The notes under the pieces were generated by a model. The model was not told the origin of the DNA. It saw nothing but the letters and a program-made list of their open reading frames with translations, and did not search any database. The position numbers and the translations under genes are program-made. This document shows, piece after piece, positions 1 through 5,297 of a DNA stretch of 5,297 nt; within the stretch, counting starts at the first letter, position 1; each line of letters opens with the position of its first letter. Source of the stretch: a virus. Its lineage: Duplodnaviria; Heunggongvirae; Uroviricota; Caudoviricetes. The stretch lies in IMG/VR virus record IMGVR_UViG_2585427793_000007, positions 1-5,297 of that record. One strand, given 5' to 3'.

Positions 1-969
1 CATAAAACTCTGTGAGACAGTCGTCCAGCTGTTTGTGTCGCTTTGTACGCCATTCTCTGTAATCGTTGCACCTGCATGGCTGCCATTTTTCACTTTCCAG
101 GCCAGGCAGTTATTGGGGGCATCAGCACCGCGGTAAGTGACCGAGGCCATAACAGCCACAACATCACTGTTGCTGTTATCCACCGCATCAAACGTGGCCT
201 GTGCTGCATTCAGGGACGGCGAGAGCATCAGATATCCGGCCTCGCTGTCAGAGGTGTTCAGCCCCGTGACAATATCTTTATTCAGTGAGTTTTTGGCGCT
301 TCCACCGGTAAATGCCGTTACCGGGCTGTATCTGACCTCAATGCTTCCGAGCAGGGCGGGTTCTGCACTATTATTTCTACCGTATGTCACTGTTCCACAG
401 TACATATCACCCAGCATTAACGTGCCGGATGCACCCGATGAAAAAATATTGTCACCACTACCAATACTCACCTGAATTTTGTCAGTCCGGTCATCTGATA
501 CATAAAACGATGCATTTCCAACTAATGAGCGGTTGCAGTACAGACTGGCTGAGACATAGCCGTTTTCGTTTCGCGTTGCGAAAATTTCATAGTAATAACT
601 GGCTGCTTCATCAGGATACGGGGTTGTAAATGAATAGCCATTAATCCTGATGTGGGATGGCGAAGATGAATATTTCTTTCCCGCACTTAATGTCAGACGA
701 AATCCCAGCTGTACAGCTGAGGCTTTTAAGTCCGGAAGTGTGCTGTACAGTGTGACATATGAGGGTGTCGTAAAAATCAGCCCCGTTCTTTCTACAGTAT
801 TTACGGCCTGAGTGCCACGACAGACGGATGTTACAGAACCGGACATATCATTGATAAGCGTGACACCGTTTTCGTTCAGTGCTGAAATAATATTTGTTGA
901 ATAATAGTTCTCGCACAATCCCTCATTCGCCGGAATTTGTCGGAACCCTTCCAGATTAATAATATTCAA
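1..969 (-). CDS. Hypothetical protein, partial (3' end beyond window start); possible distal tail-fibre / receptor-recognition component
   Basis: Minus-strand frame is open for 323 codons from 969 down to position 1 with no stop; a chance open frame of this length in ~45% GC DNA is very unlikely. Probable TTG start at 969..967, preceded by AAGGGG (revcomp of 976..981) with a 6-nt spacer; the first in-frame ATG (846..844) has no Shine-Dalgarno. Translation begins MNIINLEGFRQIPANEGLCENYYS and is S/T/N/G/Y-rich and non-repetitive. Not listed in the ORF track because its stop is off-window. I do not recognise the family; the fibre role is inferred from position only. Confidence 0.55.
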   Translation of the reverse strand, partial: MNIINLEGFRQIPANEGLCENYYSTNIISALNENGVTLINDMSGSVTSVCRGTQAVNTVERTGLIFTTPSYVTLYSTLPDLKASAVQLGFRLTLSAGKKYSSSPSHIRINGYSFTTPYPDEAASYYYEIFATRNENGYVSASLYCNRSLVGNASFYVSDDRTDKIQVSIGSGDNIFSSGASGTLMLGDMYCGTVTYGRNNSAEPALLGSIEVRYSPVTAFTGGSAKNSLNKDIVTGLNTSDSEAGYLMLSPSLNAAQATFDAVDNSNSDVVAVMASVTYRGADAPNNCLAWKVKNGSHAGATITENGVQSDTNSWTTVSQSFM

Positions 970-975
970 AATATT

Positions 976-981
976 CCCCTT
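976..981 (-). promoter_or_regulatory. Putative Shine-Dalgarno for the downstream ORF
   Basis: Minus strand reads TAA TAG AAACTAAAT AAGGGG AATATT TTG; the AAGGGG lies 6 nt before the TTG and 13 nt after the stf double stop, which suggests translational coupling. Confidence 0.4.
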
Positions 982-993
982 ATTTAGTTTCTA

Positions 994-2091
994 TTAAGCA
1001 GCAGATAAAACCGCAAACTGCAGTACTGCCCGATCTACTGTCAGTGGCTCATTGGTTTGATATGCTGGTACAAAGAAGGCTCTGTTAACTGCTACCGGCT
1101 CGCTCATCAGGAGTCCGGGTTGTAATTGCATGGTGTTAATGGTTATCGGTTCATGGGTGTTGCGCCCTGACTGAACAAATTTTCTGTTAATTGTTAAAGG
1201 CCCCCTTGTCTGTTCCCCGGACTGAAGCAGCACTCTGTTGATTTGCAGAGCGGGCTTTGGCGTTTCTGACGGAATTTCTGGTGGAATGACGGGCGCACCC
1301 TGAGAAGCCAGAGCCTCCGCGATTAACGCGCGTACAAATGCAGCATTGGCTATCTCATTACCGGATGCATCCGGTGGAGGTACTGGAGACATCGGGGTTC
1401 CCGTAAATTCAGGGCTGTCCAGCGATGCTTTTTTCTGCGTTTCATCCATCACTAACTTTACCGCCTTCGAGGTCGCTGCAAGCGTTTCTGACTCACTGTC
1501 CGTGGCGCTGCTCAGCCGCACAATCCCGTTGTGTTCCGTACTCGCATCCTCTGCAGTATATTTCCTGTCAGCGAGATCATATGCTGCTTTTACCGCCTTC
1601 GGGGTCGCTGCAAAATCTTCACTGCCGCTGTCCGTATCGCTGCTCAACTGCACCAACCCCTTTTGGGTTGTGGTGGCATCCATTGTTCTTATGCTGTCGA
1701 AAATCTTCTTTACACTTTCTGCATATTCGGCTGCCGCTTCCGCATTCGCCCTGGCGTGAGACACCAGTTCCTCAAGGTGGATTATCACTTCAGGCCTGGC
1801 ATTCTGCTCAGTGAATTTCAGTAAAAAATCATTCAGCGCCCCAGGCTGAGAATCTTCGTAAACGGTGATGTCCCCTATATTCGATGGTGGATAACCATCA
1901 ACCAACAGGGTGACGCTGTACTGTCCATACTCAACGTCCATACTGTAACGCCCGGTTTCATCCGATCTGACTGAAGCTACAGTACTTGCCAGCACCGTGG
2001 TGCTGTGACGCCTTGCCGTCAGCTGAATGATGCCATTCTGTATTGGTTTACCTGCACCGTCTTTCAGCACACCTGAAATCTTTACTGCCAT
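994..2091 (-). CDS. stf: Side tail fibre protein, Stf-like, short form of about 365 aa
   Basis: ATG at 2091..2089 preceded by GGGGAG (revcomp of 2097..2102) with a 5-nt spacer; the track's GTG start at 2097 is two codons upstream. N-terminus MAVKISGVLKDGAGKPIQNGIIQL...GRYSMDVEYGQYSVTLLVDGYPPS...ITVYEDSQPG closely matches the lambda Stf N-terminal domain as I remember it. Two copies of the phage tail-fibre repeat motif follow (GLVQLSSDTDSGSEDFAATPKAVKAAYD and GIVRLSSATDSESETLAATSKAVKLVMDETQKKASLDSP). Ends in a double stop, TAA at 996..994 then TAG. Confidence 0.8.
   Translation of the reverse strand: MAVKISGVLKDGAGKPIQNGIIQLTARRHSTTVLASTVASVRSDETGRYSMDVEYGQYSVTLLVDGYPPSNIGDITVYEDSQPGALNDFLLKFTEQNARPEVIIHLEELVSHARANAEAAAEYAESVKKIFDSIRTMDATTTQKGLVQLSSDTDSGSEDFAATPKAVKAAYDLADRKYTAEDASTEHNGIVRLSSATDSESETLAATSKAVKLVMDETQKKASLDSPEFTGTPMSPVPPPDASGNEIANAAFVRALIAEALASQGAPVIPPEIPSETPKPALQINRVLLQSGEQTRGPLTINRKFVQSGRNTHEPITINTMQLQPGLLMSEPVAVNRAFFVPAYQTNEPLTVDRAVLQFAVLSAA
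997..1248 (-). repeat. Five tandem in-frame 51-bp (17-codon) repeats forming the Stf C-terminus
   Basis: Translated units: LQINRVLLQSGEQTRGP / LTINRKFVQSGRNTHEP / ITINTMQLQPGLLMSEP / VAVNRAFFVPAYQTNEP / LTVDRAVLQFAVLSAA (last unit 16 aa). Conserved positions are hydrophobic-T-(I/V)-(N/D)-R, a central Q, a G/P/A turn, and a terminal E-P. DNA-level identity between units is only moderate, so this is an old protein-level periodicity, not a recent duplication. Confidence 0.7.
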
Positions 2092-2096
2092 ATTCA

Positions 2097-2102
2097 CTCC
2101 CC
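2097..2102 (-). promoter_or_regulatory. Putative Shine-Dalgarno for stf
   Basis: Minus strand reads GGGGAG TGAAT ATG, spacer 5 nt. Confidence 0.45.
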
Positions 2103-2133
2103 AAACAAAAAAGGCACCATTTCTGGTGCCCTT
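2103..2133 (-). terminator. Candidate rho-independent terminator between J and stf
   Basis: Minus strand reads AAGGGCACCA GAAA TGGTGCCTT TTTTGTTT: a 7-bp perfect GC-rich stem (GGCACCA/TGGTGCC), extendable to 9 bp with one G-U pair, a GAAA tetraloop, then a T-rich run. It sits 17 nt after the J stop and directly before the stf ribosome-binding site. Confidence 0.55.
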
Positions 2134-2149
2134 ATCCAGGTTATAAAAT

Positions 2150-4222
2150 TCAACTGATACTGATACCTGCTGTTGATTTCTTCATCACCACAACCAGTAA
2201 ATCGCTGATACTTGCTGTGGGATACCAGCCATTTACCAGCCAGGCTGACACAGAAAATTCCAGCCTCATGTGACCGTGACCGGCAGGCATATCAATAACG
2301 CCACTGTAAATCAGCGTATTATCCAGCGCAGTACGGTTATAAATTTCAGCACCGTTTTTCCGCACTATCAGACGGCATGAGGAGTAAATATCAGTATGAT
2401 TTCGCTCATGCTTAGCGCCGCTGAATGCCACCGCCGGAATAACAATCTGTCGGTCAAACGGCTGATCGTCATAAATCCTGACGGTAATGGTCCCTGATGG
2501 CCACCGTTCCGGTGCACGGGAGTCCCGGGGGAAAGCTTTACCCACTGTTTTAACGAGATCGCCTTCAATCTGGTTCGCGGACAGTTTTCCCAGAACCCGG
2601 CAGTTCTTGTTAATCGTGACGTTGTTGAGCGTCCCGGCGTTCGCATTCACGTTACCGCTGATATCCGCATTTCTCGCCGTCAGTCGCCCGTCCGGTGTCA
2701 GGGAAAATGCCGGAGGATTGCCACCACTGGTAATGGTGGGGGCCGTCAGGCGTTTCAGGAACACGTCATTCATGAATATCTGATCACCCTGCGCCACAAA
2801 CATCGGCGTTTCATTTCCGTTTGCCGGGTCAATAAACGCGATACGGTTAGCGGCAACCAGGAACTGGCTCAGTTTACCTTCCTCCGTGTCCTCCATGCTG
2901 AGGCCAATACCCGCGACATAATGTTTGCCGTCTTTGGTCTGCTCAATTTTGACGCCCCACATGGCATTCCATTTATCGTTGGCATCTTTCCACTCTTTCG
3001 AAAACTCCTCCAGTTTGCTGGCGTTATCCTCCGTCAACTCGACTTTTCCCAGCAGCTCTTTACCGAGATGGGATTCGGTTATCTGGCCTTTGAAAAAATC
3101 CAGGTAACCTTCGGCATCATCGCTCGCCCGACCGACAGCCTCCACAAATGCCGATTTGCCAACGGTGTTCACACTGCGGATGTAAAAATAATAATCATGG
3201 CCCGGCCTGATATTGATACTGGCAGCTATCCAGTACAGCGCCGTGCCAAGATAGCGCGCTGTGGTTTCAACCTGTCTGATATCCGCAATCCGCTTTTCCG
3301 AGAACCAGAATTCAAACTGTACCGTCGGGTCATAAACGGCAAGATGCGGCGTGGCGGTTATCTGAAAATAGCCCGGCGTCAGCTCAATCCGCGACGGCGC
3401 TGCCGGTGCGGCAATCCGGAACGATACCGATGCAGGATCGCCCTGCTGCCCCCAGGCATTTGCCGCCCGGACTGTCAGCCTGTAGCTTCCCAGCGCCAGC
3501 TGCCTGAAGCGGTATGTGGTTTCCGTCGTCCGGGCCGTGCTGACCAGCCGCTCACTGCCGTCATCCGCTGCCACGGTCAGGCGAAGCATAAAGCTCACGC
3601 CCTTCACCACCTTCGGTGTGTCCCATCGCGCCAGCACCTGATATTCCCCGCTGTCTGCAGTGACTTCTGCGGTCAGGTGCTGCACCGCTGGCGGCGTGAC
3701 ACCATTCACCGTGCCACTCTGTTCGCCGTCAAAGTGCGCCCCGTTATCCACGATGGCCTCTTTTTCCGGCACATGCTGCACGGCGGTGATGGCATACGTG
3801 CCGTCGTCGTTCTCACGGATACTCACGCAGCGGAACAGTCGCTGGCGCAGCGTCGGCAGCTTCAGCCCCCATACGCTGTATTCAGCAACACCGTCAGGAA
3901 CACGGCTCACTTTTACCTTCACGTCGTCGGTGACGGACTGAACCTCCACGCTGACCGGATTGCCACTTCCGTCAACCAGGCTTATCAGCGTGGTACCGGA
4001 GGATGGCAGCGTGATTTCACGGTCGAGCGTCAGCGTCCGGGTCTGGCTGTTCACCGCCAGCACACGACCACCGGTGCTGATACCGGCATAGTCATCATCA
4101 CAGATTTCAATAACATCGCCCGGTACATGGCGAAGCCCTTCTGCGCCGACGCTGAAATCCACGGTCTGCGTTTCCAGCAGTTCTGTTTTAATCAGCCACA
4201 GCCCGGCGCGGTGTGCCTGCCC
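2150..4222 (-). pseudogene. J: Tail-tip host-specificity protein J, C-terminal ~690 codons; 5' part separated by IS186 insertion
   Basis: Continuous 691-codon frame ending at TGA 2152..2150. Translation is typical of lambda J-family central tail fibre proteins, with fibronectin-III-like segments and a C-terminal receptor-binding region ending ...[24 protein letters not shown].... J-family proteins are about 1100 aa or more, so roughly 400 N-terminal codons are missing. The track's ATG at 4225..4223 is the revcomp of the CAT that begins the IS186 terminus, and the frame hits a stop inside IS sequence 18 codons further up (TAA, revcomp of 4280..4282), so it is not a native start. Confidence 0.8.
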
Positions 4223-4245
4223 CATAAGCGCTAACTTAAGGGTTG
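4223..4245. repeat. IS186 terminal inverted repeat (one end)
   Basis: CATAAGCGCTAACTTAAGGGTTG at the boundary where the J frame breaks. The partner repeat is off-window, so the assignment rests on memory of the IS186 terminus rather than an observed pair. Confidence 0.5.
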
Positions 4246-4393
4246 AACCATCTGAAGAATGCGACGCCTCGGTGCCTCGTTAAGACGATGCCTCGCGTTC
4301 TTCAATTGCGTTTTGTAGGCTGTCAGGGATACTGTCCCACGAATGGCCACCTGTAAGCTCCAGATGACCATTTTTGTTATTCTCCACAACGAG

Positions 4394-5297
4394 TTAGTTC
4401 TTCTTTTCGGATCCGGCACTTCTGGGGGGGAAATCCAGCGATGGCTGGATTATGTCGTCAATTAAAAATGCGGCGAGTAGATTAGCAAATATCCACGCTT
4501 TCGCGAGTTCAGGTTCCTTTGCACGCAAAGCATCCAGGTGCAGCAAACTTTTGAGCCGCTTAAAAGCCAGTTCAATTTGCCATCGCAGACGGTAACAATC
4601 AGCCACTTGCTCTGCTGAATATTCATCTTCCGGTAATGATGTTAGCAATAGCACATGGCCCGCTGCTTCCAGCGTTTCCGCCTGAACTACTCGTCCTTTT
4701 CGACGATTCTCGCTGAGCAGTCGGGTTTTACTGATTAATGCTTTTTCGGGAGGAAGTGATACGGCAATGAGACGTGCCGGAAAGGGAGCTCCGGCTTTTT
4801 TATTACCTGAATTGCCTATCATTACAGTGGTTTCACCGTTCTTACCGCAATCCAGCCCGCGCAGAAAACCCATCATGTCAAAGCGCATTCCTTCTGCAGT
4901 TAACCAGCGCAATCCTCGCCAGTGAACCCGGACGATATAATCAGCTTCTCCAAAAGCAAGTGAGCGGATACATTCGGGACGCGAACCGAATCCCCGGTCA
5001 GCAATGCGTATCTCGTCTGCCGTTTGCGCAAATCGGTCCAGCCGTTCAGCGTCTCTGCTGTCGGTTAGCTCAAAATCAGTGAACTGACAGGTATGAGGAT
5101 CATATCCCATATGTAGTCGCCATTCAGCGCTGCCGCCCCCGGGCGCACTGATTGCTGTTCCATCGACAAGACGCAATCTCTTTCCGCTTGTACAACCCGT
5201 AACTGCGGCGCGTACAGCAAGTGTTTGTGCGGCAAGTATGCCAAACCAGTCGGCGGCATTCCGCAGCCGCTTCAGGAGAGCCACGTCAGATAATGTT
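4394..5297 (-). CDS. insL: IS186 transposase InsL (IS4 family, DDE), partial; 5' end beyond window end
   Basis: Frame is open from the window edge (…TLSD-VALLKRLRNAADWFGILAAQTLAVRAAVTG…) to TAA at 4396..4394. The C-terminal region CYRLRWQIELAFKRLK resembles the conserved Y-R-E-K-type C-terminal signature of IS4-family DDE transposases. The track's Met at 5284 is an internal GTG; the real start is upstream of the window. Confidence 0.85.
   Translation of the reverse strand, partial: TLSDVALLKRLRNAADWFGILAAQTLAVRAAVTGCTSGKRLRLVDGTAISAPGGGSAEWRLHMGYDPHTCQFTDFELTDSRDAERLDRFAQTADEIRIADRGFGSRPECIRSLAFGEADYIVRVHWRGLRWLTAEGMRFDMMGFLRGLDCGKNGETTVMIGNSGNKKAGAPFPARLIAVSLPPEKALISKTRLLSENRRKGRVVQAETLEAAGHVLLLTSLPEDEYSAEQVADCYRLRWQIELAFKRLKSLLHLDALRAKEPELAKAWIFANLLAAFLIDDIIQPSLDFPPRSAGSEKKN

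Follow-up and report, generated by a model that had tools for sequence, protein, structure and literature searches.

The question raised by this locus is whether two open reading frames (ORFs) lying side by side in the tail region of a prophage are the halves of one broken side fibre gene or two genes in their own right. The stretch analysed here, called the window, comprises 5,297 nucleotides (nt), positions 1 to 5,297 of the IMG/VR record IMGVR_UViG_2585427793_000007, and has all its genes on the minus strand. The first ORF, with a lambda-Stf-type N-terminal domain, occupies 994..2091 (TAA included) and encodes 365 amino acids (aa) when started from the ATG at 2091; the ORF lister's GTG at 2097 gives 367 aa. 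Identical genes are named 'prophage tail fiber N-terminal domain-containing protein' in RefSeq. This gene is ended by the tandem stops TAA (996-994) and TAG (993-991), together 991..996, which are followed by seven sense codons (KLNKGNI) containing a Shine-Dalgarno (SD)-like AAGGGG at 976..981, 6 nt before a TTG start codon at 969-967. The TTG is in frame with the first ORF (2091-969 = 1122 = 3 x 374) and opens a second ORF (1..969) of 323 codons, which runs off the window at position 1 and has 349 codons in near-identical loci. Only these two stops interrupt frame 1 of 2097..1, against 47 and 45 stops in the other two frames. The double stop, the seven codons, the AAGGGG, the TTG and the open frame after it had been listed in an earlier note on this DNA and were confirmed in the sequence. 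That note asked whether a single Stf-like gene had recently been split or whether the two ORFs form a genuine two-protein fibre. A split by a nonsense mutation would make the downstream ORF a decaying C-terminal half, as in pseudogenisation of the lambda PaPa type. In favour of a split, one frame runs through both ORFs with only TAA-TAG and seven codons between them, the summed length of about 720 aa resembles that of lambda Stf, and the prophage is damaged elsewhere by an insertion sequence (IS) in gene J.

The two ORFs are almost certainly genuine neighbouring genes. A megablast search of 5,426 complete E. coli genomes gave 8 genomes carrying the whole 2.2-kb stretch at 98.9-99.7% identity, in which J is intact (1131 aa) and TAA-TAG, spacer and TTG are the same as in the window. 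The gene order in one of them (L001) is J, Stf-N protein (365 aa), 'hypothetical protein' (349 aa), 'phage tail protein' (369 aa) and tail fibre assembly protein (176 aa), the last being a separate Tfa gene (PF02413) further downstream. In another 10 genomes the shared part is just the last 90 or so codons of the upstream gene together with the downstream gene (93% identity), and the prophage is a P2-like myovirus. There the upstream gene encodes a 285-aa 'tail-collar fibre' protein (PF12571) whose C-terminus is the same, and the junction is identical. The tandem stops are identical in loci L001, L002, L009 and L019. Comparison with intact prophages, which the earlier note had proposed as a check, has therefore returned the same double stop and separate start both next to an intact J and in a P2-like prophage, and this speaks against a split. 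Spacer conservation between L001 and L002 was also considered as evidence and was dropped, the flanking 150 nt being themselves 99% identical and part of a mosaic block.

The junction was then compared over 35 loci in which it is complete, taken from E. coli, E. albertii, Raoultella and 26 IMG/VR prophage contigs, and eight junction types were distinguished. The window belongs to type A (TAA-TAG, spacer of 24 nt, same frame, TTG); in the other types the upstream gene is closed by a single TGA or TAG. Five types change frame across the junction, namely B (TGA, 23 nt), B' (TAG, 22 nt), C (TGA, 22 nt), D (TGA, 17 nt) and G (TGA, 56 nt, after a Tfa gene), all with a TTG start. The frame is kept in type E (TGA with further in-frame stops, 30 nt, TTG) and in type F (TGA, 12 nt, ATG, after a 64-aa ORF). 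Spacers therefore range from 12 to 56 nt and are 12-30 nt in most loci, and none of the 35 loci has an open frame across the junction. An SD-like motif stands about 4-8 nt before the start in all eight types, the motifs other than that of the window being AAGGAG, GAGGA, GAGGG, GAGGTG and AAGGAAAG. Such variety of stops, spacers and frames, with an SD and a start of its own at each junction, is not that of a single gene cut in two. Since two adjacent genes share a frame with a probability of 1/3, and three of the eight junction types do so, the shared frame is not beyond chance; second in-frame stops are likewise frequent, and additional ones are present in one further junction type. The shared frame and the double stop in the window are coincidental and have no biological meaning. 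The TTG start is kept in seven of the eight types, in relatives down to about 51% protein identity, with ATG seen just in more distant ones; speculatively, retention of a weak start could serve to fix how much downstream product is made for each upstream protein. It was also observed that in L001 (6110-9421) three consecutive genes, for the Stf-N-like protein, the 349-aa protein and the 369-aa short fibre, are all in the same frame, 24-30 nt apart with stops between them; the chance probability of such a run is 1/9 and the pattern is absent from relatives.

The product of the downstream gene belongs to PHROG 8291, a family of unknown function (expectation value (E) 7.7e-242, residues 1-349 on profile positions 1-349 of 349), and is called the 8291 protein hereafter. 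It had no match in Pfam, NCBIfam or PADLOC, and no description of PHROG 8291 or of the repeat module treated below was found in the family libraries consulted. A word-indexed search with the 349-aa query gave 28 clusters, down to 41% identity, in which the full-length members are stand-alone proteins of 343-387 aa and three are fragmentary (245-334 aa). When the family profile was run exhaustively, without a word index, against 1.84 billion cluster representatives, only 18 proteins were found, the full-length ones having 346-368 aa and most being aligned from their first residues. The upstream protein, too, has stand-alone proteins (314-370 aa) as its closest full-length relatives. A fused Stf-8291 homologue was present neither among the 28 clusters, nor among the 18 exhaustive-search matches, nor among these closest upstream relatives, so three independent searches fail to give the intact gene from which a split would have come. 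The N-terminus of the family, MNIIxLEGFRQIP, is among its best-conserved parts and is kept down to 41% identity; the invariant residues are Q87, R91, Y125, Y126, E128, Y144, D188 and Y190. The ratio of nonsynonymous to synonymous substitution rates (dN/dS, Nei-Gojobori) between the 8291 gene of the window and its relatives is 0.16-0.23 at dS 0.2-2.7, a pattern by which the gene is judged to be under purifying selection, with no sign of the relaxation that a decaying fragment should have. Stand-alone homologues, the conserved N-terminus and the low dN/dS together make the 8291 gene an independent, selected coding unit. Nothing at the junction of the window therefore calls for annotation as a pseudogene or a recoding site, and pipelines that call two genes here are correct.

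The family is rare and is so far known only from prophages. It was found in 63 of the 5,426 complete E. coli genomes, and a scan of species-representative genomes gave one locus only, in E. albertii. A tblastn search of 50,697 deposited phage genomes, lambda included, returned no match to the 8291 protein, which is therefore unrelated to the distal half of lambda Stf; the same set gave no match to the repeat region of the upstream protein.

The upstream protein resembles lambda Stf in its first part. PF08400 covers residues 1-129 (E 1.3e-52), PF03406 is matched twice (E 3.7e-33), and the gene follows J as in lambdoid phages. The lambda-Stf-type N-terminal domain is accompanied by a coiled segment, two Phage_fiber_2 repeats and the collar motif SLDSPEFTGTP, and repeats of another kind form the C-terminus. 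Nucleotide identity with lambda-like phages (about 83%) is limited to a stretch of about 370 nt that runs from the end of J into the beginning of the Stf-like gene. Unlike lambda Stf, the protein ends at 365 aa in repeats of the PLxIN type, without the distal shaft and the Tfa-dependent tip, and the tblastn comparison with the 50,697 phage genomes placed a homologue of the lambda distal shaft and receptor-binding tip (the orf-314 part) neither on the upstream protein nor on the next ORF. The lambda precedent called upon in the earlier note also does not fit, as the separation of lambda stf into orf-401 and orf-314, compared with the intact stf of Ur-lambda, is a laboratory frameshift which abolishes the side fibres (PMC12617516) and not an in-frame stop; the two-gene layout here is, by contrast, a conserved natural state.

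The last 85 residues of the upstream protein (997..1251, minus strand) consist of five tandem 17-aa units, ALQINRVLLQSGEQTRG, PLTINRKFVQSGRNTHE, PITINTMQLQPGLLMSE, PVAVNRAFFVPAYQTNE and PLTVDRAVLQFAVLSAA, with the consensus PLxINRxxLQSGxxTxE. These are visible at the protein level only, as Tandem Repeats Finder gave no DNA-level repeat, and no Pfam family covers the region. The final unit is of a 'PLxxNxxGLxFAV' subtype which is also found internally in relatives; the protein therefore stops at a repeat-unit boundary, which again speaks against a split. With just the C-terminal 113 aa as query, the word-indexed search gave no match, probably owing to a limitation of the index, and the full-length query was used instead. 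Two variants of this protein, P0031 and P0032, have 314 and 325 aa as against 365, with one Phage_fiber_2 unit lost and a PSET motif duplicated, which indicates, as far as the sequences can tell, that its length varies through repeat recombination.

The repeats and the 8291 gene are linked in at least four attachment contexts. Repeats of 5-9 units form the end of the directly upstream protein in 33 of the 35 loci and of a protein two genes upstream in the other 2, and 18 of 18 E. coli genomes with the repeat type of the window are among the records where the 8291 gene follows. The N-terminal parts of the repeat proteins are mutually unrelated, being lambda Stf-N (PF08400), P2 tail-collar (PF12571) or Mu gp48 (PF10076). 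In many more E. coli genomes the homology with the window starts exactly at the TTG. An example is L003, in which the upstream gene encodes a 319-aa baseplate protein of Mu gp48/YmfQ type (PF10076) in which the last 120 residues consist of repeats of this kind, and the junction consists of TGA, a 23-nt spacer with AAGGAG, and TTG in another frame. The cassette of 8291, short fibre and Tfa genes recurs at 99% identity in L001, after Stf-N, and in L003, after Mu gp48. A fourth context is given by the distant relative P0151 (E 3e-48 to the profile), which follows a 300-aa P2 gpI protein matched by TIGR01634 on residues 6-142 only; the tail of this gpI is made of four 18-aa units SVPVKAINGTxINAGNVL. 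Another distant relative, P0153, follows an ORF ending in units of PVKxIYG type, and in both the stop nearly abuts an ATG start (TGAAATG). In the extended forms of gp48 and gpI the family models match just the N-terminal 140-190 or so residues and leave the repeat tail uncovered; canonical gp48 and gpI are not known to have such tails. Mu gp48, its e14 counterpart YmfQ and P2 gpI can thus carry a C-terminal repeat extension like that of the window, with the 8291 gene directly after it, and differ from the upstream protein of the window, which has an Stf-type N-terminus and is not a wedge protein. P2 gpI-type proteins with C-terminal repeats of 17-18 aa and of other types (SVPVKAINGTxINAGNVL; PVKxIYGxxICDGDxV) were noted at L040 4097-4999 and L037 1-307.

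For the 8291 protein, AlphaFold2 with a 26-sequence alignment gave a confident all-beta model (predicted local distance difference test (pLDDT) 91.7, predicted template modelling score (pTM) 0.90). The model is a double beta-jelly-roll of the concanavalin-A-like lectin/glucanase fold, with the jelly-roll sandwich present, and the protein is accordingly predicted to be a globular tandem jelly roll. Foldseek matches to TtX122, legume lectins and botulinum HC domains are in line with a jelly roll, and no solved structure of a phage fibre, gp38, gp35 or chaperone was among the matches. Lectin and glucanase proteins of this kind (alginate lyases of PL7, PL14 and PL36, GH131, CBM22 and CBM4, sialidase lectin domains) have 5-16% identity to the 8291 protein, which places two jelly rolls in tandem in one chain of 349 aa. 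The best matches among predicted viral structures are whole-chain, to siphovirus proteins of about 350 aa (Achromobacter AchV4, Serratia JS26, Providencia Kokobel1, Cronobacter JC01 and Hafnia Enc34) with template modelling scores of 0.5-0.67 and Foldseek E of 1e-14 to 1e-10. These are of similar length, share 11-16% identity with the 8291 protein and are likewise of unknown function, and the one from Achromobacter phage AchV4 is annotated as 'virion structural protein'. The near agreement of the summed length with lambda Stf, which the earlier note had pointed out, is a coincidence, because the 8291 protein is globular and unrelated to the C-terminal half of lambda Stf. The two-protein fibre of that note is supported as gene organisation and not in the sense of two fibrous pieces. 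It was also asked whether the 8291 protein has a hidden copy of the repeat in its N-terminal strand, which would hint at ancient fission or strand complementation. A hidden Markov model of 42 units gave negative scores only, none of them N-terminal and no better than those of shuffled sequences, and the idea was rejected.

Functional statements about this pair of genes draw on gene context and predicted structure. In the mechanism that we favour, the two separate genes are co-transcribed, no promoter and no strong terminator having been found at their junction, and make a multi-protein tail fibre. The upstream product is the proximal stalk, fixed to the tail by its lambda-Stf-type N-terminal domain, and the 8291 protein is translated on its own, as 349 aa, from the TTG with its own SD. 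The repeat array may be the docking site of the 8291 protein, which at the distal end of the stalk would act as a glycan-binding, possibly glycan-cleaving, head for receptor recognition; the concanavalin-A-like fold is typically used for binding or cutting polysaccharides. The N-terminal domain of the repeat protein would then be the sole part specific to the tail type. With docking and a distal head, the repeats plus 8291 would thus be a portable cassette, grafted by recombination onto lambda Stf-N, P2 tail-collar, Mu gp48/YmfQ and, distantly, P2 gpI. As a whole, the combination of a two-gene multi-protein fibre, a repeat-docked distal 8291 head and a portable cassette is considered somewhat probable; taken singly, the statement that virions carry the 8291 protein as a distal binding head attached to the repeats has about even chances. 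Phages T2, T6 and S16 carry a comparable arrangement, gene 38 directly after fibre gene 37 encoding a separate globular tip adhesin which sets receptor specificity (PMC3157838). By analogy, gp37/gp38 is functionally the closest counterpart, the 8291 gene likewise following its fibre gene directly, and differs in that the proteins of the window are unrelated to it in sequence and fold.

Several observations weigh against this mechanism. The 35 loci collapse to 8 junction types and hence to few independent observations. The fold matches are at superfamily level only, with 7-16% identity, so that lectin, lyase and purely structural roles are not separable by them. The AlphaFold monomer of the stalk protein (pLDDT 39, pTM 0.26, 10 alignment rows) is uninformative on the fold of the repeats, a low confidence which is expected for a monomer model from 10 rows of what is probably a trimeric fibre. 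Both modules are absent from the 50,697 deposited phage genomes, so all the evidence comes from prophages, some of them defective. The order of genes also departs from the scheme in places. In L016/L017 (2569-6056) it is a Mu gp48-type protein with repeats, the short fibre, Tfa and only then 8291 after a 56-nt spacer. In L004 the repeat is reduced to one unit (PLVIKHAVVSVG) on the 64-aa ORF directly before an ATG-started 8291 homologue, and in L038, with the most distant relative (P0163, E 2.5e-5), upstream repeats are not evident. The L004 homologue (4002-5000, and also in L005) is the most divergent E. coli relative at 41% identity, and the Stf-N protein there has 257 aa with a different, repeat-free C-terminus.

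Among the alternatives, the one which survives best, and is still unlikely, makes the 8291 protein a hinge or hub, docked on the repeats and bearing the short fibre of the next gene (369 aa, with Tfa, in L001 and L003), in the manner of gp35 in the long tail fibre of T4. T4 gp35 has about 372 aa, similar to the 349 aa here, and the T4 fibre (gp34, gp35, gp36, gp37) is also built from several separately encoded proteins with a hinge of this size and a chaperone gene nearby. Genes for a short fibre and a Tfa chaperone come directly after 8291 in most loci, and in L001 the 99% identical cassette stands behind a lambda-type Stf-N, where there is no myovirus baseplate to which the fibre could attach; its occurrence behind both Mu gp48 and Stf-N suggests that the 8291 protein may also, or instead, carry the short fibre in some phages. 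The position of a gp35-like gene fits L001, L003 and L040 but not L002, L008, L016 and L036, as 8291 is the last gene of the tail module in L008 and L036, is followed by other genes in L002 and is preceded by the fibre in L016/L017, so that a distal fibre after 8291 is absent in several relatives. Moreover, neither T4 gp35 nor any fibre protein was matched in sequence or in fold, and a lectin/glucanase fold points to ligand binding and not to a purely connecting role.

Rather less likely again is that the 8291 protein stays out of the virion and assists assembly, as a chaperone or cap which helps the repeats to fold, or stabilises them, before being released. The strict linkage to the repeats would agree with it, chaperone genes do typically follow fibre genes, and the weak TTG in seven of eight junction types would suit a sub-stoichiometric helper. 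Against this, the 8291 protein gave no chaperone match (Caudo_TAP/PF02413, NCBIfam, PHROG) and a genuine Tfa is encoded separately downstream; it is a large protein with a lectin/glucanase-like double jelly roll, and its best viral structural relatives include the 'virion structural protein' named above. An improbable alternative is a moron or cargo gene without tail role, for example in lysogenic conversion or exclusion. Prophage tail-fibre regions are hotspots for cargo, and a family of unknown function which is absent from all deposited phage genomes could be of this sort; but the gene has the same orientation as its neighbour with short gaps in most loci and no promoter or terminator of its own, it keeps its linkage to the repeats in four attachment contexts whose tails are unrelated, and inspection of its N-terminal sequence gave nothing like a signal peptide. 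A defence-system role was considered as well, and PADLOC gave no match. The splitting of a single gene, in view of the evidence already given, is refuted. Least credible, and likewise rejected, is a programmed readthrough giving a fused Stf-8291 besides the two separate products, for which only the shared frame in the junction type of the window speaks, as two consecutive strong stops would have to be passed, relatives either change frame or interrupt the spacer with several in-frame stops, and the seven spacer codons are not conserved as protein.

The question first asked of this locus has an ordinary answer, and the linked repeat and lectin-like cassette is a modestly novel lead. The 8291 family and the repeat module are tightly linked and move together among lambda-like, P2-like and Mu-like tails. 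Should the repeats indeed serve to dock a head of lectin-like fold, the pair would be a natural receptor-binding cassette independent of tail type, through which prophages of differing tail architecture could swap their host-recognition unit. If true, it would be relevant to the prediction of host range of E. coli prophages and to the engineering of phage or tailocin specificity through one small module in place of whole fibres, and it gives PHROG 8291 a testable role. A wider proposal, put forward tentatively, is that of an undescribed 'plug-in' cassette for receptor recognition, in which the array would serve as a universal docking rod on a siphovirus fibre, a P2-type fibre or a wedge protein (Mu gp48, P2 gpI), recruiting a new class of separately translated, lectin- or lyase-like double-jelly-roll head, possibly at the same time the socket for a further short fibre.

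Beyond the cassette, L001 (10021-14173) and L003 (7791-9231) carry fibre and Tfa gene fragments, a 45-aa ORF named 'nucleocapsid protein' in RefSeq and, on the opposite strand, a class I S-adenosylmethionine (SAM)-dependent methyltransferase, with an IS66 insertion in L001 as well. The whole has the look of a decayed region of invertible or alternative fibres, together with cargo.

Upstream of the Stf-like gene in the window, a strong terminator-like hairpin (2110..2133, minus strand) with a 10-bp stem AAGGGCACCA...TGGTGCCTTT followed by a T run lies between the stop of J (2150) and the ATG of the Stf-like gene (2091); the record of phage 21 has an annotated terminator at the corresponding J/stf boundary. 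The tail-tip gene J is present as its C-terminal 690 or so codons (2150..4222, minus strand; Pfam Ig_J, Ig_J_second, Phage_Tail_Tip and Ig_GpJ_C) and is severed from its 5' part by an IS4-family element of IS421/IS186 type (4223..5297, minus strand), which runs off the window and is 99.5% identical to 'IS4-like element IS421 family transposase'. The terminal repeat CATAAGCGCTAACTTAAGGGTTG begins at 4223, where the prophage homology stops, and the transposase ORF lies at 5284..4394 on the minus strand (PF01609). None of the 5,426 complete E. coli genomes shares this insertion in J. The apparent ATG at 4225 of the 691-aa J ORF is made by the end of the IS, and the prophage of the window is, as read from its sequence, defective for J.

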